DNA of 64,000 nucleotides from an uncultured Parachlamydiaceae bacterium (lineage in GTDB: Bacteria > Chlamydiota > Chlamydiia > Chlamydiales > Parachlamydiaceae): positions 256,001-320,000 of the forward strand of contig CAVVXH010000010.1 of assembly GCA_963752155.1 (NCBI GenBank), written 5' to 3'. Positions 1,195 through 64,000 of the stretch are shown in pieces (within the stretch, counting starts at the first letter, position 1; each line of letters begins with the position of its first letter). The position numbers and the translations under genes were made by a program. The notes under the pieces were generated by a model. That model was given only the letters and a program-made list of their open reading frames with translations, was not told the DNA's origin and did not search any database.

Positions 1195-2421
1195 CTAATA
1201 TCCTATTGTTTTTGAAACTTCTAAAAGAATCTCAAAAATAACGAATACTGCGAGTAAAAGGAGAGCTATTTTCCCCCCAGGAAACGTGTACGGCGATTGC
1301 ATTCCTAAGCGATAGCGTGCGGTCCATACCATTAAAATCGGAAGTAATCCTAAAAGAAGGGCGCAACCATAACCTCCTGCATAATCTAACGCTGTGAGGA
1401 AGATATGGGGAAATAGATAAGCTATAAAAAGAGCGGGAATAAAAATAAGCAAGCACAAGAGCGTTTTGCCGGAAAGTGATTTTTTTATATTTAAGCCATC
1501 AGCTAAGAAATCCATTAAGCCGAGAGTGACTCCAAAAAATGAAGTAATCAGAGCAAAAAAAGCAAAGTATTGTCCGACGATATAGACGATTGGTGATTTA
1601 ATGAAGTTTTTCAAAGGATGAACAGCATTATCTCCATTGGCTAGGGCTTCGGCGAGTCCTCCAGGACCATGCGTTGGAACAATTCCTTGGATCAACCATT
1701 GCCAAACAATATATGTGACTAGAGGGATGAAACTTCCTATAAGAATTGCTTTTCTTATGCGTTTAACATCGAAATGCATATCATTGACCAAAGTGGGGAT
1801 AATCCCTTGATAGGCAAAGGACGTAAAGGCAATTGGCAAAGCTAAAAGTGATTTCGACCAATCGCGATGTAATAAGAGCTCATTTTGGACAAATCCAAAT
1901 CCAAGGAAAAGAAATGCAAGAAAGGAAATTGCTAATCCTAACATAAATAAAACGTTTATTTTACTTACAAATCGTGTGCCGGCTATGATAAGAGGGGCAA
2001 CAAAAAGGACAAAGATAAATGGTGCTATCCAGCTTGGGATTTGATTCCCTGCAAATTGGGAGATTAAGTCTCCGCATCCGACAATGTAGGCGACAGAGAG
2101 TGAGTAAAATAAAAATAGATAGAGCACCCAAGCAAATGCTTTTCCCCAAAAACCTAGTGTACGTTCTGACATAGAGACAATATTTGCATCCTTATGCATC
2201 CATAGAGAGATTTCCAGAAAAAGTAAGCCGGTGCAAGTCATGAACAACCAGCAAAAAAAGTAAACAGTAATTGAGGGAAGAAAGCCTCCTAAGCTTGTCA
2301 GGACAGGTAAGGCTAGCATTCCTCCGCCAATAGAAGTTCCAGCAACCAATAAAATTCCGTGGAAAGTTGATCCGGTATTTTGTTCCAAAATTGTTCCTTT
2401 TGTTTTCCGAGAGAATAGCAC
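1195..2421 (-). CDS. tyrP: Aromatic amino acid (tyrosine) permease, HAAAP family
   Basis: LLVAGTSIGGGMLALP, SFAYQGIIP and TSFFGVTLGL motifs; multiple TM helices. Confidence 0.85.
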   Translation of the reverse strand: MLFSRKTKGTILEQNTGSTFHGILLVAGTSIGGGMLALPVLTSLGGFLPSITVYFFCWLFMTCTGLLFLEISLWMHKDANIVSMSERTLGFWGKAFAWVLYLFLFYSLSVAYIVGCGDLISQFAGNQIPSWIAPFIFVLFVAPLIIAGTRFVSKINVLFMLGLAISFLAFLFLGFGFVQNELLLHRDWSKSLLALPIAFTSFAYQGIIPTLVNDMHFDVKRIRKAILIGSFIPLVTYIVWQWLIQGIVPTHGPGGLAEALANGDNAVHPLKNFIKSPIVYIVGQYFAFFALITSFFGVTLGLMDFLADGLNIKKSLSGKTLLCLLIFIPALFIAYLFPHIFLTALDYAGGYGCALLLGLLPILMVWTARYRLGMQSPYTFPGGKIALLLLAVFVIFEILLEVSKTIGY

Positions 2422-2520
2422 GATCCTTCCGGAGTGGGTTTTTCAGGGTCGTTCAGGTTCAGTTATCCTTAAATAGTATCATTTTGTTAACGATTAGTCT
2501 AGATTTTCTTGAATTCTTTT

Positions 2521-2544
2521 CGTGTAATCGTGTAATCGTGTAAT
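2521..2544. repeat. 8-bp tandem repeat (CGTGTAAT)x3
   Basis: cgtgtaat cgtgtaat cgtgtaat immediately left of the AACGAT array. Confidence 0.85.
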
Positions 2545-2560
2545 GACGTCTGTAATGAAG

Positions 2561-2887
2561 AACGATAAGAACGATAGGAACGATAAGAACGATAGGAACG
2601 ATAAGAACGATAAGAACGATAAAAATTATAATTGAACATTATCATGATGAACTATCTGATTAAACTGTGTAAACTAAAATTCAAATCATTTATAATAAAT
2701 TGTTGCATTTTAGTTTGCATAGTTTAATTTACACTTCCAAGAGAAACAATAAAAAAGTTTTTATCATCTTCTTATCGTTTTTATCGTTTTTATCGTTTTT
2801 ATCGTTCTTATCGTTTTTATCGTTTTTATCGTTTTTATCGTTTTTATCGTTCTTATCGTTCTTATCGTTCTTATCGTTTTTATCGTT
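2561..2887. repeat. Empty inverted 9-mer array pair, AACGAT family: (AACGATARR)x7 at 2561-2623 and reverse complement x13 at 2771-2887
   Basis: Units read directly; the arms face each other around an AT-rich 147-bp spacer. Confidence 0.95.
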
Positions 2888-3093
2888 GCATCGTGGCAAG
2901 GGGACAAAATATAAATTATCAAGCCCAAATCGAAGCTGAAGATCAACTTGAAATAGCTCCAGATTTAAAAAAAGCAATTAGTTGTTGCAACATATAAACT
3001 GTAAATGATAATATCTAAAATGCGTGATGAATAGAAAATCAAAATATTCAAGATAATATATTAAAATAATTTATTTATACTATGGAGGACAAT

Positions 3094-3552
3094 ATGTCTA
3101 CAGAAGTCGGAGTGAATACACCAGTTCAGCAGTCGTTTGTGAATACTGCTGAAGTAAAAACTAAAGATAGCTGGATGAATCGGTTGGCTAAAGGCGCAAC
3201 AACTCTAGTTTCTACAGCAGTAGGTTTACAAGCAAGTGCAATTGTTTCTGCTTGGGCACCTAAAATTATTCTAGATCGTGCCATTGCCGGAAGTTCTTGC
3301 TGGGCGTGGGGAGCATTAGTCACGGGGCCTGCAGCAGTGAAGGCTTCTGCACCGATAATTACTTTGATGACAGCGGGCGCTGGGGTTGCTGCTACCGCAG
3401 GTACCGCAGCTACGATTGTCTGTGCCGGAAAAATACTCTCTTATGGAGTTAATGCGATTAAAGGTAAACTTGAAGAGCGCAGAATCAGAGAAAGTGAAAG
3501 ATTAGCTCAGAATATATTAGCGAATAATTTCAAAGAGGTTATTGCCGCCTAA
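3094..3552 (+). CDS. Hypothetical Ala/Gly-rich hydrophobic protein, possible secreted/membrane effector
   Basis: ORF 3082-3552; GGAGG RBS precedes ATG at 3094; hydrophobic core and charged C-terminal helix. Confidence 0.65.
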   Translation: MSTEVGVNTPVQQSFVNTAEVKTKDSWMNRLAKGATTLVSTAVGLQASAIVSAWAPKIILDRAIAGSSCWAWGALVTGPAAVKASAPIITLMTAGAGVAATAGTAATIVCAGKILSYGVNAIKGKLEERRIRESERLAQNILANNFKEVIAA

Positions 3553-3565
3553 ACAAGCGGATGCT

Positions 3566-3701
3566 GGCTATGTTCACCTGTACACGAGAAACTTTATTCC
3601 TCCTCTGTGTTCTCTGTGATCTCTGTGGTAAAAAAAAATCTACCACAGAGATCACAGAGAACACAGAGGAGGAATAATTGAGCGAAGAAGTGAACAAGGC
3701 T
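3566..3701. mobile_element. 136-bp MITE with internal CACAGAG(A) inverted 9-mer repeats (copy 1)
   Basis: Ends GGCTATGTTCAC / GTGAACAAGGCT; 8-bp flanks CGGATGCT / TGGATGCT; near-identical inverted copy at 46831-46966. Confidence 0.85.
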
Positions 3702-3841
3702 TGGATGCTCATCCCTTTGCCGCGTCTTAGCCATCCAATTATCCATATGGGTAATTGGATGGTCTCTTTTAAATTCTGGCATTAAATTTGCAGCCATATT
3801 CTAATACTTATATTAATAAGCTTAGCTATAAGGAGGGCAAG

Positions 3842-5672: not shown

Positions 5673-8272
5673 CTAATTTTCGGAAATTCCTCTTTTGCTT
5701 TTTATTCTGGAACTACTGCTTGAAGAAGATTCCTTGCTGATTAGAGGAAACACTTCTTGATCGATAAAGATCAACTGATCCCCCTCAACGGTGACGAGGC
5801 AGTGTCTTCCTTCATCAGGATTCAGGAGAACTTTTTCTGCTAGAGGATCTTCAGGAATTGTTCAAGTGTGCGTCTTAAAGGGCGAGCGCCCATTTCAGGT
5901 TGGAATCCTTTTTCGACTAAAAACGCTTTGGCTGCATCATCCAATTCGATCACAATTTGGTGAGAAGCAAGCCTGGTGAGCAGTTTTTTAAGCTCGATGT
6001 TAATCACTTGAAGCAGTGCTGCTCGATCAAGAGGTCTAAAGATCACAACATCATTTAAACGATTTAAAAATTCAGGTTTAAAGGCTTTTTTGACCGCAGC
6101 CAGTATCTTTTCTTTAATATGTTCATAATCCATAGAACCTTCTTGAGCTCCAAAACCCACTTCTGTACTCTTTTTGATAAGATCAGCTCCCAAGTTGGAA
6201 GTCATGATGACAATCGTATTGCGAAAATCGATTTTTCTTCCGAAAGAATCGGTCAAACGCCCTTCTTCCAAAATTTGCAGAAGGAGGTCCATGACATCAG
6301 GATGCGCTTTTTCAATTTCATCAAAAAGAACAACAGAATAAGGACGTTGACGGACTTGTTCTGTCAGTTGGCCCCCTTCTTCATGTCCCACATAGCCTGG
6401 AGGAGATCCTGTCATGCGGCTGACAGCAAATTTCTCCATGTATTCTGACATGTCGACTTGAATAAGAGCATCTTCTCCGCCAAACATATTGATTGCAAGT
6501 AGGCGAGCTAGAAGTGTTTTTCCTACTCCTGTTGGACCTAAGAAGAGAAAAGCTCCAATCGGACGATTAGGATCTTTGATATCGGCTCGGCTGCGGCGAA
6601 TCGCGCGGCAGATGGTGTTTAAGGCTTCATCTTGTCCGATGATACTTTCTCTAAGAATTTCTTCCATTTTAAGACTTTTTGCGTTTCCCCTTCGGTCAAG
6701 GCGATTACATAGGAATGCCTGTTTGTTTTGCAACAACATTGGCGACATCTTCATCTTCGACAATGACTTCATGCTCTTCTTTATTGATTTCCCATTCGGC
6801 ACGAATTTGTTGCAGCTGTTCGCGCAAAGTCTTTTCTTTATCGCGCAATTTCGCAGCTTTTTCATATTCTTGCTTGCTGATGGCATCTTCTTTAGCTAAG
6901 CGCGTCTTCTTCAATTTCAGCTTCATATTTGCTAATGTCTTGAGGTTGATTCATCATGGAGATGCGCATTTTGGCGCCGGCTTCATCGATTAGATCGATA
7001 GCTTTATCGGGTAGGAAACGTCCATGAACATAGCGATCAGAAAGAATTGCTGCAGCTTTAATGGCTTGCAGGAGTATAAAAACATTTGTGATGCTCTTCA
7101 TATTTGCTTTTTAAGCCCATCAAGAATTTCAATTGTTTCTTCCACACTTGGCGGTTGGACCATGATTTTTTGAAAACGTCGTTCTAAGGCAGCATCTTTT
7201 TCAATATGCTTGCGATATTCATCGATAGTGGTGGCTCCGATACACTGCAGTTCTCCGCGTGAAAGAGCAGGTTTAAAATATTAGAAGCATCGATAGCCCC
7301 TTCTGCAGCACCTGCTCCTACAATCGTATGCAATTCGTCGATGAATAAGAAGAACATTGCCATTCTTCTTGATTTCATCCATGACAGCTTTAATGCGCTC
7401 TTCAAATTGACCGCGGTATTTTGTTCCGGCAATCATTAAAGCCAAGATCAAGAGTGATCAATTTCTTTTTGCGCAGATTATCAGGCACTTCTCCTTTGAC
7501 AATGGCTTGAGCAAGACCTTCAACAATAGCTGTTTTACCCACACCGGCTTCACCGACGAGTACAGGATTATTTTTACGGCGGCGGCAGAGAATCAGAATA
7601 AGACGTTCGACTTCTTCTTTTCGTCCAATGACAGGATCCATTTTGCCTTCGCGGCACATTTCAGTCAAATCATGTCCATAAGCTTTAAGGGCAGGCATTT
7701 TGTCGGAAATTGGCATTGCATCCTTTTCATAGGATTTATCGGAAGAGCTTACCGGCACTTGCCCAGCGCAGCTGGGGTGGCCGAGGAGTAGGAGGTGATG
7801 ATTGGCCTCCCTAATAGGAGGAAGTTGTAAATTAAAGGTTTCGAGTTCTTTAAGAACTTCTTTGCGACTTCTTTAAGATTGACATTTAGATTTTCAAGTA
7901 CTTGAGCAGCAACACCATCCGTTTGACGTAATAATCCCAATAAAAGATGTTCGGTCCCGACATAGTTATGATTGAGATTCGCAGCTTCTTCATTAGCATA
8001 TTCAAAAACTTTTTTTACTTTTCCTGTTAAAGCTGGATCGCCATAGACTTGAATTTCAGGACCATAGCCTACAAGTTTTTCAACTTCGCTGCGCACAGTT
8101 TCAAAATCGATGTTTAAGATTGCGCAACACATTGACAGCTACACCTTGACCAAGTTTGAGCAAGCCAAGAAGAACATGCTCTGTTCCCAAGATAATTATG
8201 ATTTAGGCGTTGAGCTTCTTTTTTTGCCAATTTAATGACTTGCTTTGCTCGATTGGTAAATTTGTCAAACAT
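5673..8272 (-). CDS. clpC: ATP-dependent Clp protease ATPase ClpC (fragmented by frameshifts)
   Basis: [12 protein letters not shown] start; [42 protein letters not shown] spread over about 7 ORF pieces. Confidence 0.92.
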
Positions 8273-18440: not shown

Positions 18441-18573
18441 GCAAGGACGACAAGGACGGCAAGGACAACAAGCAAGGACAAGCAACAAAGATATAAGATA
18501 ATACCATTTCTCGTTTATTTTATATGTCCTTGCTTGCCGTCCTTGTTGTCCTTTTCGTCCTTGCTGTCCTTGT
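18441..18573. repeat. Empty inverted 9-mer array pair, CAAGGAC family (copy 1)
   Basis: (RCAAGGACR)x~4 then ~40-bp spacer then reverse complement x~5. Confidence 0.9.
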
Positions 18574-20216
18574 TAGTTCTTTTCTTTAATACGATTAAGT
18601 TCTCTATAGAACGCATCAAGTTCGACATCTTCATCGTTTTCAGAAGCTGGAAATTGCTTTGAGATTAATTGTTCTCTCTTAGAATTTAGATAATTCAGAG
18701 CGTTTTTAATAGGGTCTTTTACACTATCAATTTCATTATTAACGTTCCAAGAATCACAATAAAGCTCTATGCTTCCATTAGCTAAAATATATAAATCAGT
18801 AATTTCTTTGGGTAGCCGAGTTAAAAAGCCTGGAGATTGATGAGTCCATTGATCCATCAAATCTAAGAGTTCTGCATCCAAAGCATGCAATTCCTCAATG
18901 CTGCAACCACTCTTAGAATTGGTTAATTCGACGATTTGATGCGCGATGATGCGAAATTGAGATTTAATTTCTTCTAGATGATCCTCCTTTTCAAGATAAG
19001 CACGCATTTCTGGAATTTCAGTATCAACTTCCTCAATAGAAGAATCGTTATTAAGTTTATCTTGAAAATCGGTATTTAACCAATCATTAAAACTTTCATC
19101 ATTAAAACTTTCATCATCTTCAAAAAAGGAGTCTGATTCATAGCCATCCTCTAAAATTCCCTCGTTTGAATTTTCGATCTCGCAAGCCGGAGATAGATGT
19201 TTATTTTCTAAAGACTGATTTTTTTCATAGTTCGCCATGAATTGTTGTGCTTTTTTGAAGTATTTCTGGGCTTTAATTAAATCATGATCCCTATCAGGCT
19301 GATTGCTTTCTGTAACTGCAAAAGAAGGATTTAATTGCTGAAGGACTTCTTCGGCATCAGAACGAAATTTATCAGAAAGTGCATCGGTTTCTTGGTTTAT
19401 ATTTTCGACATCTGATTGAGCAATATCTTTAAGTGTAGTAACTATATTGCAATCTAGGTACGGATTCAGGCTCTCGTGTGATGGTTTGATATTTATTTTG
19501 GGCTGAATTTGTGGGCGTTCGTACACCTGAAACATTTCAATTTTAAGTAAATTTTCTTCCGTAATTCTTTTTAAGTTAGACTCATTTTTAGAAGATAATG
19601 GATTCTTTATTTCATTTATTTGTTGTCCCATTAGATCTACTTCGATTTTAAGTAATTCTAACTTTTCTTGTTGTTGATTTGCAGATAAGTTAATGGACGC
19701 ATAAAGAGTATCAATTGCTTCTCCTTGTTTATAAGCTTCTTCTAACAAGTTTTCAACAAATTTATTTTGAAAGAATAGATCAATTTCATTTTCATTTTCT
19801 TTAGAAATTTTTAGAAATGCTGCAATCTTTTCACTAATAGCAGAGGAGGGGAAATTTTTTTGATCGATGTTTTTTGAGAAAACATAATCGATTTTGGTCA
19901 TTTTGAAAGGAATAGATTTGAGTTGTTGCCAGATAGAGTTCAGTTCATTTGTGGCCTCAGGATCGTTTTTTTTAATGAGGGCTTTAATTTTTGAGCTTAG
20001 GATGAATTGATTTTGAAGTAAATTTTCTATAACCGAAGGTAATTTCCTCGCATTGATTTGTGAAGTTGTTTGGGGGTCCGCTTCTGATGTCTGTTTTGAG
20101 TCCAGAACCAAAGCAATCTCCTTTATTTTGCGAGTTTGCACATTGTCAATTCTTATAGAAAAAAAATTTTGATATAAATTTTGGAAAAAATTTAAAGAAA
20201 AAAATGAATAGATCAT
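18573..20216 (-). CDS. Hypothetical acidic coiled-coil protein
   Basis: 547-aa AT-rich ORF; GAGG RBS; E/D/N/K-rich; no motif recognised. Confidence 0.7.
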   Translation of the reverse strand: MIYSFFSLNFFQNLYQNFFSIRIDNVQTRKIKEIALVLDSKQTSEADPQTTSQINARKLPSVIENLLQNQFILSSKIKALIKKNDPEATNELNSIWQQLKSIPFKMTKIDYVFSKNIDQKNFPSSAISEKIAAFLKISKENENEIDLFFQNKFVENLLEEAYKQGEAIDTLYASINLSANQQQEKLELLKIEVDLMGQQINEIKNPLSSKNESNLKRITEENLLKIEMFQVYERPQIQPKINIKPSHESLNPYLDCNIVTTLKDIAQSDVENINQETDALSDKFRSDAEEVLQQLNPSFAVTESNQPDRDHDLIKAQKYFKKAQQFMANYEKNQSLENKHLSPACEIENSNEGILEDGYESDSFFEDDESFNDESFNDWLNTDFQDKLNNDSSIEEVDTEIPEMRAYLEKEDHLEEIKSQFRIIAHQIVELTNSKSGCSIEELHALDAELLDLMDQWTHQSPGFLTRLPKEITDLYILANGSIELYCDSWNVNNEIDSVKDPIKNALNYLNSKREQLISKQFPASENDEDVELDAFYRELNRIKEKN

Positions 20217-20526: not shown

Positions 20527-20629
20527 AACGATGCAAACGATACAACGATAAAAACGATAAAAACGATATAAACGATAAGAACGATAGGAATGATAGGAAC
20601 GATAGGAACGATACAACGATAAAAACGCT
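20527..20629. repeat. AACGAT-family array downstream of the GxxExxY gene (~11 units)
   Basis: aacgatgca aacgatac aacgataaa aacgataaa aacgatata aacgataag aacgatagg ... Confidence 0.92.
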
Positions 20630-20673
20630 TTTCAAGATTATTTACAAAAGTCTAGACACTCCCACTCCCTACG

Positions 20674-21099
20674 TCACAATTTCTCATAGACTTCTTCTAG
20701 ACTAGTCGAAAAGTCCTCATTGCTCTGCAGTCTTTTCCATTCCAATTTCCTATGTCGGAAATTTACTAACAAACCGATTTGAAGTTGAGAAGCTTTTAAA
20801 TAGTTGAATAATTGTGCCTGATGTTCGCGAACCAAACTTTCACAACATTTTAATTCCACGATCACGGTTTTTCCTACAACCAGATCTGCGTGATATCGAC
20901 CGATTACTTTGCCTCTAAACATTACTTCAAAAGGTCGTTCTACTTCGACCTCTAGGCCCATCTGTCTCATCGCAATCAATAGCGCATTTTTGTAGACTTT
21001 TTCCAGAAATCCTGGCCCAAGCTCCTTCATGACCTCAAAACAACAGTTCAGAATGGTGCCCGTCAATTCATGATGAGGTAATTTTTTGTCTTCTTCCAT
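20674..21099 (-). CDS. GxxExxY protein (PD-(D/E)xK nuclease-like)
   Basis: ELGPGFLEKVY, ADLVV..VIVELK and QLFNYLKAS..GLLVNF; ATG at 21099 is part of the last repeat unit (alternative start 21120). Confidence 0.92.
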   Translation of the reverse strand: MEEDKKLPHHELTGTILNCCFEVMKELGPGFLEKVYKNALLIAMRQMGLEVEVERPFEVMFRGKVIGRYHADLVVGKTVIVELKCCESLVREHQAQLFNYLKASQLQIGLLVNFRHRKLEWKRLQSNEDFSTSLEEVYEKL

Positions 21100-21358
21100 C
21101 GTTCTTATCGTTCCTATCATTCTTATCGTTTTTATCGTTTTTATCGTTCTTATCGTTCTTATCGTTTATATCGTTTTTATCGTTTTTATCGTTCTTATCG
21201 TTCTTATCGTTCTTATCGTTTTTATCGTTTTTATCGTTTTTATCGTTCTTATCGTTCTTATCGTTCTTATCGTTTTTATCGTTTTTATCGTTTTTATCGT
21301 TCTTATCGTTCTTATCGTTTATATCGTTTTTATCGTTCCTATCGTTCTTATCGTTTAT
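21098..21358. repeat. AACGAT-family array upstream of the GxxExxY gene (29 x 9 bp, ATCGTTnnT)
   Basis: 29 consecutive units with variants ATCGTT-CTT/TTT/TAT/CCT; inverted relative to 20527-20629. Confidence 0.97.
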
Positions 21359-21478
21359 ACCATTGATCTATAGTTAGTAGCAACAGTCTGAACGGTAGCT
21401 CACTTCACTTTTTCTAGAGCTGTCAAAGGCCTTCACCACTTCACTCCCATAATTAGAAGTTGCTATTGCTATCTCTTG

Positions 21479-23167
21479 CTATCTCTTCCTATCTCTGTTG
21501 AGAAAAATAAATGGAAACAAAACCCCAAGACAACAAAGCAAAAGAATTGGACTATTTCCAAATCGACTATAAATTGTGGGGTAATGGTATCTCGGAACTT
21601 CGACGTATAGAGCATCGGCAATCCATTGTGATTCCGGCGATGTATCTCCTAACATCGCAATGATTTGCCCAAAACTGTCGCAGGCTGTCGTAATTCCTGT
21701 ATTGCAAGCTCGAACAATAGGGACTCCATTTTCAACGCTACGCAATCTAGCAAGATCGAAATGTTGTTTAGGTAGATTGGAATTGGGGTACCATACATCG
21801 CTCGAAAGATTGACAAGCAGCTCTGCTCCGTTTTGACGGCATTCTCGCATGATATTTCCAAAGGTCTCTTCATAGCAAATAGAAACCCCAAAAGGAATAG
21901 TACTTCCATGGAAAACTGTCGCTTCGGTTCCGAAAGTTAAAGATCCTTGAATTCCATATTTTGCTGCCAGGTTGTGGAAGATTGAAAAAGGGATATATTC
22001 AGCCATCGGAAGTAAGATCCGTTTAGCATAGTGTGGAGAGGCAGCATAAACAGACTCATCTGTTGAATTGGGTTTAAAATGGATCGCTGCACTATAATGT
22101 TGTGCCTTGGCATTTTCATCTTGAATAACATTTTCTAGACCAGCGATGACTTCAGACTGAAAGATATTGGCAACGGCTTGTGCCCAGAAAGCATTATTAA
22201 CGAACCATCTATTTCCTTGATTTGAGATAGATTGACGAGCAAATGGCTCTTGTAGGGGAGGAAACTTTTGTTTAACAGATTCACCGTAAGTTGCGGTAAT
22301 CGCTTTTTCTACCTCTTCATAGGGATAGATAGGTAAATAGGTTGCAAAAGGAACGACGTATTCGGGCAAAGCAATCAGGTCAATATTCTTTTCACGATAA
22401 GGGTGTAAAATTTTAAAAATTTGAGCCCACTCGTCTATGACGTAATCGACATACTGCGATCTCGTATCAAAGACTAGAGCCTCTTCCGCTGGAAAAGCTG
22501 TTTGCACTAACAGAGTTCTATAAGGATTCGACGGTTCTTGAATGGGGTAATGAAAATGAAATATTCCAAATAGATAAGGGAATGCAGCGAGCGATATCCA
22601 TGCGACTAAGTTCTTTTTACTTTGGTAAAACCAAGCTCTTAATCCCATCATATTTACAAGAATAACCCAGAAAGAAAGTAAATAGATTCCTCCAATGGAA
22701 GCTAATTGCATTGAATAAAGATGATTGGTTAGGGCAATTCCTGCGGGATTCCAGGTATATCCTGAGAGAAAATAGAGTCGACTCCATTCAAACAAAGTCC
22801 ACAAAGAGGCTAAAGCGATCGCTTGAGAGATTTTTTGAAGTCGTTCAGGTTTAATAAAAATAGACAACACCCCCCATTGCATTCCCCATAAAATGCAAAA
22901 CAACGCATAGACAAAATAGATATAATTGAAAGGGTGATACAGTAGCCATTTAAGTTGTATCGCTTGTACCGCGAGGAACCATAGTGTCCCTATTAAAAAG
23001 CGCTGTTTTGCTGAAGTAATTTCAAGCAAGACTCTGCACATCAGTGCATAGCCGCACAGAGCTGATAGAGTGCTCAACCAAGGAATGCCGGCAGGCTGCC
23101 CATAACTCACAATGACGAAGGAAATAAAGAGCAAAAGGAGCGCTCGGATCATGCCTAATGTTGCCAA
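21479..23167 (-). CDS. lnt: Apolipoprotein N-acyltransferase
   Basis: EWSR..SGYTWN; ALPE; KRILLPMAEYIP; SICYE; RSVENGVPIVRACNTG. Confidence 0.92.
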   Translation of the reverse strand: MATLGMIRALLLLFISFVIVSYGQPAGIPWLSTLSALCGYALMCRVLLEITSAKQRFLIGTLWFLAVQAIQLKWLLYHPFNYIYFVYALFCILWGMQWGVLSIFIKPERLQKISQAIALASLWTLFEWSRLYFLSGYTWNPAGIALTNHLYSMQLASIGGIYLLSFWVILVNMMGLRAWFYQSKKNLVAWISLAAFPYLFGIFHFHYPIQEPSNPYRTLLVQTAFPAEEALVFDTRSQYVDYVIDEWAQIFKILHPYREKNIDLIALPEYVVPFATYLPIYPYEEVEKAITATYGESVKQKFPPLQEPFARQSISNQGNRWFVNNAFWAQAVANIFQSEVIAGLENVIQDENAKAQHYSAAIHFKPNSTDESVYAASPHYAKRILLPMAEYIPFSIFHNLAAKYGIQGSLTFGTEATVFHGSTIPFGVSICYEETFGNIMRECRQNGAELLVNLSSDVWYPNSNLPKQHFDLARLRSVENGVPIVRACNTGITTACDSFGQIIAMLGDTSPESQWIADALYVEVPRYHYPTIYSRFGNSPILLLCCLGVLFPFIFLNRDRKR

Positions 23168-34350: not shown

Positions 34351-37113
34351 TTATCCATCAAAGTTGGGCTGAATAGAAGCTGCTGGAGGAACTCCTTTAC
34401 CAGGAGCCTCTTCCTTAAATGGTGCAGTCGTCGGTTCGGTTTCAAAAGATTTTTTGTGTAATTCATCTTGATATCGAAGACGCGCACGCTTTTCTTCAAT
34501 ATTCCATTCATTTTTAAGGATTTTTGCAATGTCTTCAGCATCGAGTGTTTCGAATTCGATGAGCATTTCAGTGATTAATTCGACTTGAGCTTTATACTCT
34601 TGAATTATTTCTGTTGCTCGTTTATTCGCATCATCGAGAATTTTGCGCACTTCTTTATCAATTGTCTGGGCGGTATCATCGGAGTACTTTTTCTCGTGGT
34701 ATCCGGTAATACCAGTGAAGTTCCCATTTTCAGAACGTTCATCATAGGCCATTGCACCAAGCTTATCGCTCATGCCCCACTCGCAAACCATGCTGCGGGC
34801 AAGTTGTGTGGCGCGTTCGATATCTTGTTGGGCTCCGCTAGAGATATCGTCCAACAAAAATTTCTTCGGCACACGGCCGCCCATCAACACAGCCAACTGA
34901 TCATGAAGTTCATTTTTCCAATAGCTAACACGATTTTTCTTAGGCAGGAACATTGTTGAGCCCAAAGACAATCCTCGTGGAATGATCGTGACTTTATCAA
35001 CAGGATCGGCATGCTTTAACAACGAGACCGACAATGGTATGGCCAGATTCATGATAAGCTGTGGTTCGTTTTTCGTTTTCATCGATTTCCAAGACTGCGT
35101 CGTTCTTTACCATAAAGCACTTTATCGCGTGCTTCCAGCATTTCATGCGCCGTCACAGCAGAGCGCCCTTTACGTGCTGCAAGTAAGGCAGCTTCATTGA
35201 GCATATTTGCCAAGTCGGCTCCGGAACATCCCGGAGTGCTTCTCGCAATAGTCCATTAGATCACAGTAGGATCCATTTTATTTTACGGGCATGAACTTTA
35301 AGGATGTCAAAGCGCCCTTTAATATCTGGCAGACTGATGATGACACGTCGATCAAAACGGCCAGGACGCAAAAGGCTTTATCCAAAACATCAGGACGGTT
35401 TGTCGCAGCCATGAGGATGACCCCTTCATTGGTATCAAATCCATCCATTTCCACCAGAAGTTGGTTAAGTGTTTGCTCACGTTCATCATGGCCGCCGCCA
35501 ATACCTGCACCGCGATGACGCCCAACAGCATCGATTTCATCCATAAAAATAATGCAAGGAGCATTCTTCTTGGCCTGATCAAACAGATCGCGGATACGGC
35601 TTGCGCCCACACCGACAAACATTTCGACAAAATCAGAACCGGAAATCGAAAAAAAGGGACGATCAGCTTCTCCGGCAACAGCTTTAGCAATCAGGGTTTT
35701 ACCTGTTCCTGGAGGACCAACGCAAAGAACACCTTTTGGAATATGTCCGCCGAGAGCAGTGAATTTCTGTGGATTTTTAAGAATTCGACAATTTCTTGCA
35801 GTTCTTCGATAGCTTCATCGACTCCTGCAACATCTTTAAAGGTGATTTTATTCTGCCCTTTTGTCAGCAACTTAGCAGGGGATTTCCCGAAATTCATCGC
35901 ATTGGAGCCCATCCCTTTCATTTGCCGTGAAAAGATGAAATAAAGGACAAAATGACCAAAAAGACAGGCAGCAGGGTGAAGAGATAGCTCAAATAATTTG
36001 GCGGGGCTCTTCACTTTTAAAGGTTTTTTCAAGAACCGTGTTTAAGAGGTTGATCAGGAGCTTTAAAATATCCGCCATGGTTATGGCTCAAATTATCCCA
36101 CTCTTCTTTGCAGTAGCAAACCAATGGTTGAATTCTTCCGGATCTTGCTTTTCAAGGCACGTGTAGAAAGTTCTTGGTCGTTGAAGTACCAAATCACATT
36201 GGTAACAGCTTTGACGAGCCTTATCGAGTTTGAGTGTATTGTCTTCGAGCTTTGTTAATAGGGTTGTATTTTCATCGAAAGGTCTTTGTAATTGCGAACA
36301 GAACGCAAGTTGCAGAAGGTGAATTTGATCAGTTTCGCGGCTTAGTTCTTTAACAATTTGCTGTAATTGTTGAGTTGCAGTAGCATAAAGACCTAGCTTT
36401 GCTTCAACTGTAAGTTTGGAATTGTTTAGTCCACTTTGCACATCATCGTCTAATGATTTCAATTGATCCTTCATCTCCTGATTCCCAATCCCTAACAGAG
36501 GCGCGCGGAAATCACGAATGAGTTGATGGAGCGAACTGCCAAAGGCATCGACGGTTTGAGCTGTAGGATTTGCTTGGATTTCATTCAGTTGATTTGAAAG
36601 ACTGGCTAAATTGACTTTATTTTTATTGGAAACCTCATGAAGAGTGATACTGTAGTCTTTTTCGGGGCCATGAGAAAGACCGTCGATGATCGAATACCCC
36701 TCAGAAGGAATGGGTAACCCGGAAAGTGAAAAAAATGAATTTGCCGATTCAATGACTTTATTCTGCTGATCTGTAAGAGCCGTTTTTAAACGTTCTTTTT
36801 CTGCGCGGAGTTCGTGATTGGCATTGAGTAACTCTAAAAATTTAAAACGTTGTTTCCCTTCTTCGGTGACTCGGTCTCTAAATTTCCCGCTAAAGGAGAC
36901 AAGATTGTCATTTAAAGCAATTTTTCGACTATCTTCCGGGTGCAGCAGTTGCAAATTGACAAGATGTTCAAGCTGATAGCTGAAAGAAACTTGTGCAAAT
37001 TTAGTTTCAATAAAATTCTGCACGAAAAGTGCCAAAAGAAAGGCAGCCATTACGAACCAGACAAAACCGCTCGGTACATTTTTTTTTAGATCCTGTCCTT
37101 TGTCATCACTCAT
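34351..37113 (-). CDS. ftsH: ATP-dependent zinc metalloprotease FtsH (fragmented by frameshifts)
   Basis: [41 protein letters not shown] and VTIIPRG in separate frames. Confidence 0.92.
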
Positions 37114-41288: not shown

Positions 41289-41371
41289 GCGAAAGTGGCG
41301 GAATGGTATACGCGCTACCTTGAGGTGGTAGTGGGAGTAATCCCGTGGGGGTTCGAGTCCCCCCTTTCGCA
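41289..41371 (+). tRNA. tRNA-Leu(GAG)
   Basis: Acceptor GCGAAAG/CTTTCGC+A; D-loop GGAATGGTA; anticodon arm CTACC-TTGAGGT-GGTAG; long variable arm; T-loop GTTCGAGT. Confidence 0.95.
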
Positions 41372-41530
41372 CATTATCGATTTCTGTTAGAAATGGCAAG
41401 GGTTCTGTTTTTTAAAGTTCCTTAATCAGATGTATGAAAAGAAACTTAGAGTCTCTATAGGGTTGGCCGCACGGTGAATAACCCTTTTGTTTCAGGGCCT
41501 CGTTCTTCAGAGAAAAAATAGCTAGACCGC

Positions 41531-41803
41531 TTAAAAAAGTTCGGAGTGAGAACCTAATCTTTCGACTACTAGTTTTTTGTTTTCCATATCAATCCAATAT
41601 ATCAATAATACATCCGGTCTGATGTGACACTCGCGCATGCCGACGTACCCACCAGAAAGAGAATGGTTACGGTATTTTTCAGGAAGTGCCTTTCCCTCTA
41701 TTAGCAATTTTAAAACGTCATTTAATTCACGCAGAATTGAGGTTTGATGTTGATATTTTTTTAAATCTTTTTTAAATCTTGTGACATATTTAATTGAGAG
41801 CAC
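41531..41803 (-). CDS. yafQ: YafQ-family mRNA interferase toxin
   Basis: FKKDLKK, YRNHSLSG, RECHIRPDVLLIY and RLGSHSELF motifs. Confidence 0.92.
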   Translation of the reverse strand: MLSIKYVTRFKKDLKKYQHQTSILRELNDVLKLLIEGKALPEKYRNHSLSGGYVGMRECHIRPDVLLIYWIDMENKKLVVERLGSHSELF

Positions 41804-42062
41804 TAGGTTCTACTCCCATCTGTTTCCAAAAGTCTTCTAAACTTTCACAATCGACGCCACCACCATTTAAAGCTTCCTCGTGAGCCTGAAGAGTTGCCTT
41901 ATTAGGCTTTTTGGGGAAGTCAGCTCTTAAATAGGTTAAAATAAGTTCACTAAGATTCAAATGAGCTTTTGCTGCCAACATTTTAATATAAGCTCTCTCA
42001 TCAGCAGTGCACTCTATTGTGACTTTGACTTTATCGTGGTGGGCATGAGAATGAGCGCCCAT
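41790..42062 (-). CDS. Cognate antitoxin (RelB/DinJ-like position)
   Basis: Overlaps the toxin start; PNKATLQA..E and SLEDFWK C-terminal motifs; GGAGG RBS. Confidence 0.8.
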   Translation of the reverse strand: MGAHSHAHHDKVKVTIECTADERAYIKMLAAKAHLNLSELILTYLRADFPKKPNKATLQAHEEALNGGGVDCESLEDFWKQMGVEPSALN

Positions 42063-43322: not shown

Positions 43323-43386
43323 ATTTTTTTTTATCCTAATTTGTAACAGTAGCTTTGTCTAAGAGATTATTTATGTCAAGTGCTGA

Positions 43387-43552
43387 GCAAGGACAGCAAG
43401 CAAGGACAGCAAGGACGGCAAGGACAGCAAGGACGACAAGGACAGCAAGGACGACAAGGACAGCAACACCATAAAATGTTATTGGAGATACTCTCTAATT
43501 GTCCTTGTCTTGTCGTCCTTGCTGTCCTTGTCGTCCTTGCTGACGTCCTTGC
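43387..43552. repeat. Empty inverted 9-mer array pair, CAAGGAC family (copy 2)
   Basis: (RCAAGGACR)x~8, ~35-bp spacer, reverse complement x~5. Confidence 0.92.
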
Positions 43553-43619: not shown

Positions 43620-44324
43620 ATGCAAGTTCATCAACAACATTATCCAGAATGGATAAGGATAAATACCCGTTATAATCGTCAACCTGACTGGGAAAAACTT
43701 CCTGCAGAGATAATAAGACTCATTTTTAGTCATTTAAGTTCAAAAAATAGAGAAAATTATAATTTAAGAGAAATCTGCACATCTTGGAGAGATAACTTAA
43801 ATGTTATCGATGTGAGGAGTGTAAAGGAATTATTTAACTTCGGTGGTGAAAATGATTGCAATTCAAATATACTTGTAGAGACTTTCTTCTCTTATTGCAT
43901 AAGTTCTAGGGACGCCAGGAAAGCTTATCGAAATTTTCGTATTGTTGTTAATTTAATTGGTGGATGGGAAAAGTTCCGTAGTCTTCCGGAAATCCAAATT
44001 AATTTAAACAAAAATGATATTTTTGATACTCTGCAAAAAATGAAAATATCTGAATTGATTCAAAGCATAATTAGGGTTAAGATGCCAGATAATCGACCAG
44101 GAATTATATTTAAGCATTTTAATGCTGTTAGTAAAGATGTTCAAATTGGTGTATTGACCATATATTCAAATTCAAATATTTCCGATTGGTATTTAGCTTT
44201 TAATGATCAAAGGGGCATACCAATACCTCCTATGGATTTAGAAAAATTAAGTGATAAGGTTTGTGATGTCGAAAATCCTATACCAATTTTAAGAGATATT
44301 TTTGTTAAGGGTCACATTAAATAA
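43620..44324 (+). CDS. F-box-like domain protein (putative host-directed effector)
   Basis: WEKLPAEIIRLIFSHLS...LREICTSWR matches the F-box consensus. Confidence 0.75.
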   Translation: MQVHQQHYPEWIRINTRYNRQPDWEKLPAEIIRLIFSHLSSKNRENYNLREICTSWRDNLNVIDVRSVKELFNFGGENDCNSNILVETFFSYCISSRDARKAYRNFRIVVNLIGGWEKFRSLPEIQINLNKNDIFDTLQKMKISELIQSIIRVKMPDNRPGIIFKHFNAVSKDVQIGVLTIYSNSNISDWYLAFNDQRGIPIPPMDLEKLSDKVCDVENPIPILRDIFVKGHIK

Positions 44325-46717: not shown

Positions 46718-46830
46718 TAACTTTTCTTCATAGCTAATTTGAATTTTTATGTAAATAAAAGTTGTCTTTGTCGTCTCCTAAATAACAAATTTTTAAAGAT
46801 TTACCCAACTGAAAGAAGTGTTGTTTTTGT

Positions 46831-46966
46831 AGCCTTGTTCACTTCTTCGCTCAATTATTCCTCCTCTGTGTTCTCTGTGATCTCTGTGGTAGATTTTTTT
46901 TTACCACAGAGATCACAGAGGAGGAATAATTGAGCGAAAGTTTCTCGTGTACAGGTGAACATAGCC
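46831..46966. mobile_element. 136-bp MITE with internal CACAGAG(A) inverted repeats (copy 2, inverted)
   Basis: Ends AGCCTTGTTCAC / GTGAACATAGCC; perfect 8-bp TSD GTTTTTGT at 46823-46830 and 46967-46974. Confidence 0.9.
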
Positions 46967-53345: not shown

Positions 53346-56300
53346 ATGATTATTTTTTCTCGTTGGCTTTTGACAATTTTTATTTTATGCCTCTATTTAC
53401 CAACTCTTTCAGCTGGTCAGTTACAATTTGTAGCTACTGAATCTGACCCTGATGCTTTCATTCAAAATAGCGTTAATGTCATTAACGGCGATTATTGTGA
53501 ATCCGATACAGATTTAGTAATTACAGGTCCTGACGCTTTGGTTTTACAGCGCTTTTATAGTACAAAAGATGTGATTACTGGAGCTCAAACAGGTGGATGG
53601 AGAATATTTCCTCAAAGATTTCTTATCATAGGAAAGGATCTTTCTGGAAAAACATGCAGCGTGCGTGAAGATCGTTTTGAATGGACCGTTGCTTTTACAG
53701 GAGAACGCTCGGGTGGAATTTTTCCTTACAGCGGATGGAGAAATACGAATGGTTCAACTAAAGATCCACTCAAGATTGATGTCTTAAACAATGCTGTGGG
53801 CCTAGTTAATACTTACGCTCAAGAAATCAATGGACAGACTAATCATCAAAATAACTTCCTTCATTGCAAAGGCAATGCATGCGAATTGATCTTGGGAGAC
53901 GGCACTAAACGAATTTATCAAAAAGTGAAACAGTCGCCCATGCTTATTCTCGGAGAGGAGCTAACACCTTTAATTGCTAACCAAATGATAGAGCCTGAAT
54001 CCTTTCTTTTAAGCCAAGAAATTCTTCCAAGTGGCAACCAACTCTTTTATTCCTATGATACTGCTGGTCATCTTACTAGAATCGAAATGAAAAATAAAAG
54101 CTCAACAAAAATCTTTTCATGGATCCATTTTAGTTACGAGTTTCAGAAAAACAGTTGTCAAGTACACATCGAAGCAAGCGATGCTCGTGAGCTGAATTAT
54201 CGTTTTGTTTTGGTAAATGATTTTTATAAGCTCATTCAGATCGAAGGCTCACATTGCCTTCCTACTACCTATGAGTATAATGAGGTTTTGGTTAAAAAAA
54301 CTTTGCCTGAGGGGCGTTTTATCGAAATTGATTATCAGGATGGCAAAGTCAAATTTTTAAAAGGACCAAATGCACAGACAGGTAAATCAGAAATTGTTCA
54401 TTCTTTTGCTTACGAAATTGGCTACACTGACGTCTTCAACGCATTAGGTATTAAGACAAGATATATCTATGACAAGCGTTCTCAGCTAATATCCCTTGAA
54501 AGATATGACAATCAAAATAAGATCTATCGCATCGAACGGAAATTTTGGGGGAATACAAGATTAAATGTTGGATTTTTATTAGCAAAAACAATTGTAGATG
54601 GTAATGGGCGTGTTCAATCCTATCGTTCTTTTCAATATGATAAGCTAGGTAATGTTATTGAAGAGAGGATTTATGGTAATCTAACTGGAAAACAAGAAGT
54701 TTCCTTACAAATCTCTCCAGAAGGGAATCTTTTAAATTCCGATGAAGAAGAATGTAACATTAAAAATTATGGTTTTTCAACAGATGGGTTAAATTTGCTG
54801 ACGAAAATGGGAGATTGCAAAGGAAATCAAACACTGTATTACTATAAATCGGGGACCAACCTCCTTATTAAAAAGCTAATTTTTGAGAAAGGGAGTATTA
54901 AAAAAAGAACCTTCCAGTCCCATAATGAGGATGGAGTCTGTATTAAAATTATTGAAGATGATGGATCAAAAGAAGAGGAATCTTTATTCTATGACGGGCT
55001 TATTAAGGAAAGGCATATTAAAGAAATCAAACCCAAAGAAAATCTCCCAGGAGTAGGTCTGCCAGAAATTATTGAAGAAAAGGCTTTCGATTTTATTAGG
55101 AAACAAGAAGTTCTGATTAATAAATTGGTCAATGTATACGATAATCAATCTAATCTTTTATCTTGCAGCACTTATGATGCTGATGGTCAATATGCGTTTA
55201 CAGAAAAAAAAACATATAACTCTATTGGACAAGTAATCTCACAAGTTGATGCTGTTGGTAGAGAGAGTAATTTCAGCTACGATGAAATTGGCAATCGAAT
55301 TTTTGCTTCAATTTCTCAAGATGGAAGATGTAATACTACTACTTTCAATTTTCACAATCAACCTATTGAAATCATTGAGGTAAATGCTGAGGGCCAATTT
55401 ACAATTAGTAATGATTATGATTCTTTTGGAAGAAAAATCTCTTCAACAGATCGCTATGGAAATTCTACGGGTTATGAATACGATGAGTTCAATAGATTGA
55501 TAAAAGTTATTCACTCGGAAGTGTTAGATGAAAATAATCAAATTGTTCATCCTACTTTTAGCTATACTTATGATATCTTTGGAAATGTTTTGACAACAGA
55601 AGATCCCAAAGGGGATATTATTACAAAATCCTATAATTTACGAGGAAATCCTACTAGAATAAATTATCCAGATGGATCTTTTGAACTATTTAAATATGAC
55701 ACGGAAGGCAGTTTACACCGTTCCATAACTCGCGAGCAAATCATTACTGTTTATGAATATGATTATTTAGGAAGATCTATTTATGAAGAACTCTCTACTG
55801 TGGATGAAAAGAACGTTTCCTCCTATTTAGCGAAAAGATCACGTTATTATAATGGCTTCCGATGCACTTATGAAAAAGAAGATGAGCATGTCAAGCTCTA
55901 TACTTTTGATCTGGCCGGAAGATTGGCTTCTCTTGCTGAATATACAAATGGGCCATATGATCCAGAATCTCGACGAACAGAAATCTTTTATGATCGTTTT
56001 GGCCGTTTACACCAAAAAAAAGTTTTCTTTGATAGCGGATCGCAGGAATATGCTCTAGAATGTTTTGAATACGACTTAGCTGGAAATGTGATCGAAAAAC
56101 GAATTGAAGATGCTCAAGGGATTGTTTTATTAAAAAAATGTTTTTCTTATAATTCTCAGAATCTTTGTATGGAAGAGTATAGTCTTCAAAATGGCGTTAA
56201 AACCTCATTGCTTAAAACTTTTTATAATTCTGAGGGGGAACCTATTGGTTATTTGGATGGTTCTGAACAAGAAACAAAGATTATCATCGATAATTCTTTT

Positions 56301-58889: not shown

Positions 58890-59428
58890 AATCAATGTTT
58901 TTAGCTTTAATCGTAGTTTTATTAATTATCACAGGTTTTAATTTGATAATTAGAAGGTATGAATATCCCCTATCTAAAGGGGAAGAGCTTGTAAATATTT
59001 TATTAGCAAAGGGTGCAATGACTATTAAAAATAAATATAATATGAAACCCTGTGGGTCGGGAGTCGCTATGCCAGGAGGACCTATACAGGAAGTTACTTT
59101 ATGTTTTGAAACAAAACATACCTATACTAAAGAGCAGTTGAGGGATTTGTTAATAAAATTTTCCGGAGAGTTTTTACGCCTAGTGATCGAAAACAAAGAG
59201 ATTCAAGAATTCCTCAAAGAAAAACCCTTTATTATAAAAAACATTGAAATTATAATTTATAATCATGATGAAAATGGTTTCAGTTTGAAAGATCCCCAAA
59301 TTTCAGTAGCGAATATTTCTCAAGGTAGGTTGTATTACAAAACTGTCGATCCAGAAGATAGTTTTAAATATAAAAATAAATATCAAGAAAGTTACGAGGA
59401 AGCTTTAAAAATTCTTTCAGTTCCTTGA
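58886..59428 (+). CDS. Putative immunity protein for the Rhs toxin
   Basis: ATGA overlap with the rhs stop; 180 aa with N-terminal TM/signal. Confidence 0.65.
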   Translation: MKSMFLALIVVLLIITGFNLIIRRYEYPLSKGEELVNILLAKGAMTIKNKYNMKPCGSGVAMPGGPIQEVTLCFETKHTYTKEQLRDLLIKFSGEFLRLVIENKEIQEFLKEKPFIIKNIEIIIYNHDENGFSLKDPQISVANISQGRLYYKTVDPEDSFKYKNKYQESYEEALKILSVP

Positions 59429-63370: not shown

Positions 63371-64000
63371 CTAAAAAACGAGAGTTTTGTTTAACTTTCT
63401 TTCTAAAACTTTCAATGGATTTGTGGAATTATCCTGAATAGCTTCTAGTGGCAAATGAAATGTTTGTTCTAAAACATGTTGACCTTCTAGGGCAGCGTGG
63501 GAGACGAGATCCGTGTAGACACCCCAAGTACTTCCCGGGGGAAACTTGACCACGCATTGAGGGACTGTTTTTTGATAGTGGTTATCGCCTTTCATCGTAT
63601 CGTGAATTTTAAGCATGTAATGGTCGTAAGGAGTTCTATAATCTTTTGTGATCCTTAATAATTTATAGAGTGATGCCATTCCCCAAATCGGTGCACGGAC
63701 TCGTGGAAATCATTTTTTCAACCACGTCTTCAAAGGGTTCACCTAGGCGCCAAACGCGAGGTTTTCCTTCATGATTGATATTGGTAAAAATACGTAAAAT
63801 GCGTTGTCCTCTAGTAGGACTTGAAGGAAAGGAATCGACATGAAGCCGAGAGTCATCTTTTCGATAAGAGCTCTTTCTTCCATTGATTTCAACTGGTCGG
63901 AAACTTGTTTTGGCCTGGTCTAAATAAGGGGTATAGCTTGGAATCAGATTTTCTAAAAATTGACGAGTTGTGATGGCGTAACGTTTGATCATTGCTTTCA
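63371..64000 (-). CDS. Kdo hydroxylase (KdoO-like) family protein, partial, frameshift near 63680
   Basis: DDSRLHVDSFPSSPTRGQRILRIFTNIN, RTPYDHYML and TDLVSHAALEGQ motifs. Confidence 0.8.

Follow-up and report, generated by a model that had tools for sequence, protein, structure and literature searches.

The closest described systems are MITEs, intervening sequences of 23S rRNA, cyanobacterial STRR and REPIN/RAYT. MITEs are internal-deletion derivatives of insertion sequences. An intervening sequence of 23S rRNA carries a small ORF in a stem loop of terminal inverted repeats and is co-transcribed with its host gene. ORF-bearing examples occur in Leptospira and Coxiella, and ORF-less versions exist. 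Cyanobacterial STRR units are heptamers. To our knowledge, STRR have been described neither as obligate inverted pairs nor as bracketing a nuclease gene. REPINs and RAYTs are the subject of PMC3116915 and PMC3337134. In these systems a REP is a single imperfect palindrome or hairpin of 20–40 nt, a REPIN is a gene-less inverted doublet of such short repeats co-occurring with one repeat-flanked gene, and RAYT is a Y1/HUH tyrosine transposase (IS200/IS605-like). A genome would typically carry tens to hundreds of REPIN copies and a single RAYT gene.

The locus described here lies in a 64 kb stretch of DNA from an uncultured Parachlamydiaceae bacterium, the whole of which was analysed and is termed the window. 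Two facing arrays of a nonamer, AACGATNNN, enclose a short spacer and no gene. The pair (2558-2895) is regarded, with rather more confidence than doubt, as a gene-less member or descendant of a chlamydial cassette family in which AACGAT arrays accompany a GxxExxY gene. Its parts and immediate surroundings are as follows.

2520-2544, plus strand: small unpaired array, (TCGTGTAA)x3, a short way outside the left arm; no inverted counterpart found.
2558-2622, plus strand: left arm of the gene-less pair, 7 AACGATNNN units whose variable triplets are AAG, AGG or AAA.
2621-2773, no strand: spacer of the gene-less pair, 153 nt, 20.9% GC, without an ORF of note.
2769-2895, minus strand: right arm of the gene-less pair, 13 AACGATNNN units (cores 2774-2887) and an outermost degenerate unit.

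AACGAT cores recur at 9-nt spacing, seven on the plus strand (2561-2620) and 13 on the minus strand (2774-2887). Units are contiguous, with three variable bases each. TRF gives 7.2 copies with 92% matches at 2558-2622 and 14.3 copies with 91% matches at 2757-2887. A two-unit pattern matches 50 times in the window, only within this locus or the gene-bearing locus at 20527-21356, and not once in 100 dinucleotide-preserving shuffles. Spacer bounds were set from the last AACGAT to the first ATCGTT (2621-2773). An earlier note on this DNA had given the spacer as 147 bp and AT-rich; the composition holds (20.9% GC against 39.1% for the whole window), and the size becomes 153 nt, the figure of 147 turning on the end assigned to the last unit. 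An inner inverted repeat of 26 nt (2659-2684 / 2703-2728, 88%) lies inside the spacer. The sole ORFs at the pair are repeat read-throughs. Arms are 86–92% complementary over up to 74 nt. Folded as single-stranded DNA, 2550-2895 reaches -77.1 kcal/mol, where shuffles average -31.7 (z = -13.5) and none of 100 does as well. The pair is able to form a long hairpin or cruciform. It sits in a 660-nt gap between divergently transcribed genes, a tyrosine/aromatic amino-acid permease (1195-2421, minus strand) and a hypothetical gene (3082-3552, plus strand).

The gene-bearing pair, 18 kb away, comprises three parts.

20527-20627, plus strand: left arm of the gene-bearing pair, 11 units including two 8-mers; outermost unit AACGATGCA; downstream of the gene's stop codon.
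20674-21099, minus strand: GxxExxY / PDDEXK_3 gene, 141 aa; D72, E82 and K84 conserved.
21098-21356, minus strand: right arm of the gene-bearing pair, 28.7 units; higher-order period of 45 nt; immediately 5' of the gene start.

The ATG of the gene is the end of the last array unit. The encoded protein matches TIGR04256 GxxExxY (E = 1.2e-40) and PF13366 PDDEXK_3 (E = 1.4e-39). D72 and K84 do not vary among 80 diverse relatives, at least 90% of which also have E82. AlphaFold models the protein with confidence (pLDDT 91.1). In the PDB the model comes closest to Cas4 SSO0001 and lambda-type exonucleases (E = 3e-5 to 4e-4) and less close to RecE, MGME1 and Hjc resolvases (E = 1e-3 to 3e-2). A search of the PDB by sequence gave nothing informative. 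The model supports a predicted PD-(D/E)XK nuclease fold and nothing narrower. The GxxExxY family comprises 14,144 clusters at 50% identity with E <= 0.001. PF13366 is tabulated as of function unknown, with multiple transfers, in PMC3424549. In the excerpts of the literature found, GxxExxY is named in passing mentions only, no title or listed abstract concerns array-flanked GxxExxY genes, and no activity of any GxxExxY protein is reported. The cassette is co-oriented with lnt and ORF 18573-20216. Just outside it, at the 3' end of lnt, lies an unpaired (TTGCTATCTC)x3 array (21466-21496). It is conceivable, because the start codon sits in the 5' arm, that a transcript stem of the 5' and 3' arms could sequester this codon and limit nuclease expression; this is speculation.

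Unit, polarity and a rare terminal unit support the two window loci as related elements and not as independent microsatellites. The 7 + 13 units, and the nonamer and inward-facing geometry in common with the GxxExxY locus, had been pointed out in the earlier note and were recovered when cores were counted at both loci. So was a further observation made there, an outermost unit common to the gene-less right end and the GxxExxY left end. The sequence ACGATGCAA occurs exactly twice in the window, at 2886-2894 (minus strand), within the outermost degenerate unit of the gene-less right arm, and at 20528-20536 (plus strand), each time in the outermost unit of one arm; it is present on two of the four window termini only. 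Array-to-array identities are uniformly high (86–95%), a range that neither fixes arm correspondence and orientation between the two elements nor separates descent from convergence of a slippage-prone unit.

The array also belongs to the close relatives of the gene. A word-indexed search gave 1,363 relatives of the GxxExxY protein at E <= 0.001, the best 120 of which are 72–95% identical; two are named, as Parachlamydiaceae and Chlamydiales. Among these 120, 104 could be anchored by motif, and the ORF calls of 29 of the 104 extend at least 16 aa upstream of the conserved start. Translated AACGAT units (ND.ND / TI[KR]TI), with one 8-mer frame step, make up 24 of the 29 extensions; by eye, four more match the array in part and one does not. 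An array directly upstream of the ATG is therefore a conserved feature of the subfamily. At the level of these predicted ORFs, array and gene are shown to be linked across it. The longest contig is under 5 kb for 104 of the 120 best homologues. Such short contigs would fit repeat-broken assemblies, yet they are common in metagenomes generally and are weak evidence. Periodic peptides were sought in 150 distant representatives, with none found by a strict test; a handful of N-termini looked suggestive by eye and are given no weight here.

A three-unit pattern scan of genome contigs gave at least 118 loci, mostly single three-unit matches in unrelated taxa; flanks are at most 300 nt at 38 of the scan loci, which limits pairing counts. 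Among the matches listed, the AACGAT arm is 5' and the ATCGTT arm 3' at 4/4 chlamydial loci (L038, L069, L080, L087). That geometry is found at 0 of the 114 non-chlamydial loci listed with at least three units, two being divergent and 112 unpaired. Polarity is fixed in 6/6 pairs, two in the window and four in other chlamydial genomes among the matches listed, and related pairs elsewhere, again among the matches listed, come only from Chlamydiales, Chlamydiae or Chlamydiia MAGs. The four chlamydial loci have arms of 3–11 units and spacers of about 37–82 nt. Next to them lie T2SS E/F genes, a pseudouridine synthase gene and a Mg-chelatase-C fragment; no flanking gene is common to the window and the four loci, which are non-syntenic. 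Gene-less pairs are shown to recur in other chlamydial genomes at unrelated sites. The GxxExxY protein, compared by tblastn with the at least 118 scan loci, revealed no further gene copy.

A trace of the gene is preserved in one of these pairs. Adjoining the right arm, the L080 spacer holds about 33 nt that stem from a GxxExxY gene's 5' end (z = 9.3 against shuffles), and this remnant aligns with the first codons of the window gene. The L080 pair demonstrably arose by internal deletion of the gene from a gene-bearing cassette. The L069 spacer resembles the gene marginally (z = 2.1).

Defined termini, which the earlier note had proposed in place of independent microsatellites, were not borne out. 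The terminal motif ACGATGCA is present, by eye, at 0/8 termini of the four chlamydial loci. By eye, neither window element has a target-site duplication, and the outer flanks share no direct repeat. The relatedness that the same proposal implied is upheld by the unit and by the 6/6 polarity.

Further repeats were observed around the chlamydial pairs. Inverted symmetry extends outside the arrays in L080, L069 and L087, the AACGAT pair being nested in further inverted repeats of 26–73 nt (L080 3760-4066, L069 4891-5245, L087 32-426). These three elements give the impression of palindromes in layers. An outermost GACAGGATGGG motif is common to L069 and L080, which come from one MAG; the motif was sought in the window and is absent there. 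Unpaired intergenic arrays of other 9-mers with the same 6-nt core, for example AATCGTTTC, occur at L013, L053, L072, L082 and L101, all from one unclassified MAG, and at L043, L079 and L024. Such unpaired arrays recur in some Bacteroidota-like and other low-GC genomes. Intergenic tandem nonamers are therefore not confined to chlamydiae. Phage records gave only one haloarchaeal virus (two accessions) and were uninformative.

No recognisable remnant of the gene or of its flanks is significant in the window's gene-less spacer; L080 has one. Local alignment of this spacer with the interior of the gene locus scored 23 at best, against a shuffle mean of 20.1 and maximum of 26, and is not significant. 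Ungapped comparison with the inner flanks of the gene locus, anchored at the array ends, gave P = 0.09–0.54, and comparison with the spacers of the four chlamydial loci gave z of at most 0.8. Against all sequence compared in the analysis the spacer has self-matches only and no second copy. The ORF spanning spacer and array has three protein matches at E <= 0.001, by eye unrelated low-complexity repeats. Descent of the 2558-2895 copy from a gene-bearing cassette has to be inferred, since its spacer lacks significant similarity to anything compared.

The proposed course is simple. A full cassette would consist of a purine-rich AACGATNNN array, a small PD-(D/E)XK GxxExxY gene and a complementary array, as at 20527-21356. 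The gene-less form would keep two facing arrays around a short spacer and nothing else. The copy at 2558-2895 would have descended from the cassette either by loss of the gene or through duplication of a pair that had lost it earlier. Slippage during replication probably makes the unit numbers drift (7 vs 13, 11 vs 29). In its present state the copy most likely works neither as a gene nor as an RNA and is inert intergenic DNA, prone to form structure, within the promoter region of the divergent tyrP and ORF3082.

Other nonamer pairs occur in the window. The nonamer runs named beside AACGATNNN are CAAGGACNN and CACAGAGNN.

3601-3670, no strand: gene-less CTCTGTG/CACAGAG hairpin, CTCTGTGNT x3, 12-nt loop, CACAGAG x3; called by TRF.
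18442-18574, no strand: gene-less inverted pair of CAAGGACNN, spacer about 39 nt; between nuoH and ORF 18573-20216.
43386-43552, no strand: second inverted pair of CAAGGACNN, spacer about 31 nt; an F-box-like ORF on one side, a cystathionine synthase/lyase gene on the other.
46862-46925, no strand: second copy of the CTCTGTG/CACAGAG hairpin, opposite orientation, same non-repeat flanks.

Three nonamer families and six hairpin-forming pairs are thus present in 64 kb, and one pair encloses a gene. The CTCTGTG/CACAGAG copies are parts of a dispersed element of ~140 bp (3566-3705 and 46825-46965, opposite orientations) whose core is a near-perfect hairpin with a 12-nt A/T loop.

Other features of the window were noted. 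Its gene content has a chlamydial look, with DUF5399 and DUF687 proteins, an F-box-like protein and a nuo operon. Conserved genes appear split into adjacent or overlapping ORFs at 5840-8132, 34351-36032 and 63371-63992: a ClpB/ClpC-like ATPase and FtsH into three pieces each, and a Kdo hydroxylase into two. The third FtsH piece (35691-36032) has no Pfam match and was assigned from its position. The splits are either assembly frameshift errors or pseudogenes. The stretch 53346-59428 encodes a 1847-aa RHS-repeat protein whose C-terminal part is DUF687-like; next comes a 180-aa ORF that overlaps it and has no family, and the layout resembles that of a polymorphic toxin with its immunity gene. At 41289-42062 a YafQ/ParE-like toxin ORF (41531-41803, minus strand) lies beside tRNA-Leu(GAG) (41289-41372), and the 90-aa ORF overlapping it upstream is probably the antitoxin. 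The F-box-like protein (43620-44324) matches PF12937 with E = 4e-5, just under the gathering score. Eukaryote-like domains such as F-box are typical of amoeba-associated bacteria. Rfam models matched tRNA only in the window, with no rRNA and no family at the array pair.

Distant cassettes were found on plasmids. Comparison by tblastn with annotated plasmids gave eight GxxExxY genes with 31–46% identity. At 6/6 annotated plasmid loci the gene and its two neighbours share a strand, and on one side or both the annotation leaves hardly any gap or none. Inverted arms of 25–30 nt, 86–92% complementary, bracket the gene in Bacteroides (L122), Bernardetia (L123) and Sphingomonas (L125). Each arm consists of three 8–9-mers, CACAGAG-type in L122 and L123 and CGCGAAG-type in L125. 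The CACAGAG nonamer family of the window hairpins thus also brackets GxxExxY in the Bacteroides and Bernardetia plasmids, in opposite arm order there. In L125 the ATG adjoins the last unit, like at the window locus. The Treponema gene (L119) has a 16-nt bracket, the Fusobacteria and Persicobacter genes have direct flanking repeats, Gemmatirosa has a nonamer hairpin 3' of the gene, and the Prevotella locus has nonamer runs both direct and inverted. Judged from these arrangements, inverted-array bracketing of GxxExxY genes appears to be a general architecture whose unit sequence differs between groups. As separate observations, the Sphingomonas plasmid cassette (780-1243) fills the fabD-fabG gap and the Bacteroides plasmid cassette (730-1207) the gap between radA and the next gene, both on the host strand; both are about 420–470 bp, with arms that begin TTCAC and finish GTGAA.

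Tentatively, and with doubt outweighing belief, GxxExxY genes with inverted nonamer arrays may form a class of selfish, autonomous cassettes that spans phyla and has not been described before. The substrate of the nuclease would be the hairpin or cruciform made by the arrays, or their RNA stem, and 2558-2895 and the CAAGGAC and CTCTGTG hairpins would be non-autonomous partners. If true, this would parallel the relationship of REPIN and RAYT with a nuclease in the transposase's place, and structured repeats and assembly breaks in environmental chlamydiae would in large part trace back to it. It would give a large protein family of function unknown a testable job and would account for tiny GxxExxY genes within conserved operons, for example fabD-fabG. 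The pairs are a source of long hairpin-forming DNA in chlamydia-like genomes. DNA of this kind can vary in length by slippage, favour inversion from one facing array to the other and interrupt assemblies. If the nuclease acts on the arrays, gene-bearing and gene-less elements would make a simple two-part system for the origin of non-autonomous elements.

Among the alternatives to simple membership or descent, the likeliest is that the pair is an active non-autonomous element, copied or moved in trans by the GxxExxY nuclease 18 kb away, which would recognise the arrays or their hairpin. This is considered unlikely. All evidence tying the pair to the cassette is in its favour, as are the conserved catalytic D...ExK residues, the confident model (pLDDT 91.1) with its Cas4/lambda-exonuclease-type and weaker Hjc matches, and the differing, non-syntenic sites of gene-less pairs across genomes. 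The spacers of L069 and L080, from one MAG, are also alike in length and layout (z = 2.1). However, neither window element has a target-site duplication by eye, the spacer has no second copy among the sequence compared (its protein matches being unrelated repeats), the terminal motif is absent by eye from the other chlamydial loci (0/8 termini), and the excerpts of literature found report no activity of a GxxExxY protein. Mobilisation in trans by this nuclease, on the REPIN analogy, is pure inference.

The order of events may also be reversed. Nonamer hairpins would pre-exist, GxxExxY would be a homing-type passenger, and the gene-less pair would be an unoccupied or vacated site. This landing-site reading, hairpins first and gene as passenger, is kept as a live rival and is judged quite improbable. 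Six hairpin-forming pairs of three families in 64 kb, one with a gene, agree with it, as does the window's spacer, which has no gene trace. Cassettes are wedged into tight operon gaps on the host strand at 6/6 annotated plasmid loci and at the window locus, a placement characteristic of nuclease genes that are selfish. However, the arms accompany the gene in Bacteroides, Bernardetia and Sphingomonas, in gaps between conserved genes such as fabD/fabG where a pre-existing hairpin would not be expected, and L080 is a site with a deleted gene and not a virgin one.

A host cis-element is very improbable. The pair would act as a transcription barrier, or as a spacer whose length slippage tunes within the promoter region of tyrP and ORF3082, and a slippage-prone unit would explain the likeness of the two loci. 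The pair does lie inside the 660-nt divergent intergenic region, and other pairs lie at terminator-compatible gene ends (L080 between convergent genes; 3601-3670 after ORF 3082-3552). Positions are nevertheless inconsistent, divergent, convergent and tandem contexts all being seen. Promoter-like sites number 3 against 4.9 +/- 2.2 in shuffles, with no excess. RNA duplex energies of 10 pairs have no consistent strand bias, and there is therefore no case for selection on one transcript. No Rfam family matches.

That the arrays are chance microsatellites or an assembly artefact is scarcely credible: same-core tandem 9-mers are indeed unpaired in many unrelated bacteria (112/114 non-chlamydial loci among the matches listed), but zero two-unit matches are expected by chance, the same geometry recurs at four other chlamydial loci, and the entry of the window protein has a longest contig of 648,887 bp.

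Membership in or descent from the AACGAT-array / GxxExxY cassette family is thus the preferred reading, and the known systems compare with it as follows. A CRISPR array is ruled out; the units are contiguous, with no unique spacers of similar length. Like cyanobacterial STRR, the arrays are dispersed, intergenic, tandem and built of a short family-specific unit. Like the intervening sequences of 23S rRNA, the cassettes have a small ORF between long inverted arms, and ORF-less versions are known; unlike them, they lie in intergenic gaps of protein operons, and the window has no rRNA.

Likeness to REPIN/RAYT lies in the gene-less inverted doublet of a short repeat co-occurring with one repeat-flanked gene, and the inverted repeats stand around a short spacer (arms 86–92% complementary, 153-nt spacer). 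Unlike RAYT, the partner gene is PF13366/TIGR04256 with a predicted PD-(D/E)XK fold, and unlike a REP, the arms are tandem arrays of 3–29 non-palindromic nonamers. Membership in REPIN/RAYT is rejected, the partner being no tyrosine transposase and the arms (7 + 13 tandem 9-mers) no REP hairpins. Where the earlier note spoke of a REPIN-like non-autonomous partner, kinship to the cassette is retained on unit, polarity and L080, and REPIN membership is given up on gene and arm type.

The pair is unlike a MITE in that no target-site duplication is seen, no transposase is known and arm length is highly variable. It is like a MITE in being short, non-coding and bounded by inverted arms, and the L080 pair documents such an origin, its coding part having been deleted internally. 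There is a gene-bearing parent form, from which L080 derives by deletion; the protein of the parent form is a predicted nuclease. The window pair has the polarity of the AACGAT-array / GxxExxY cassette family, and its partner gene is a clear member of the GxxExxY / PDDEXK_3 family.
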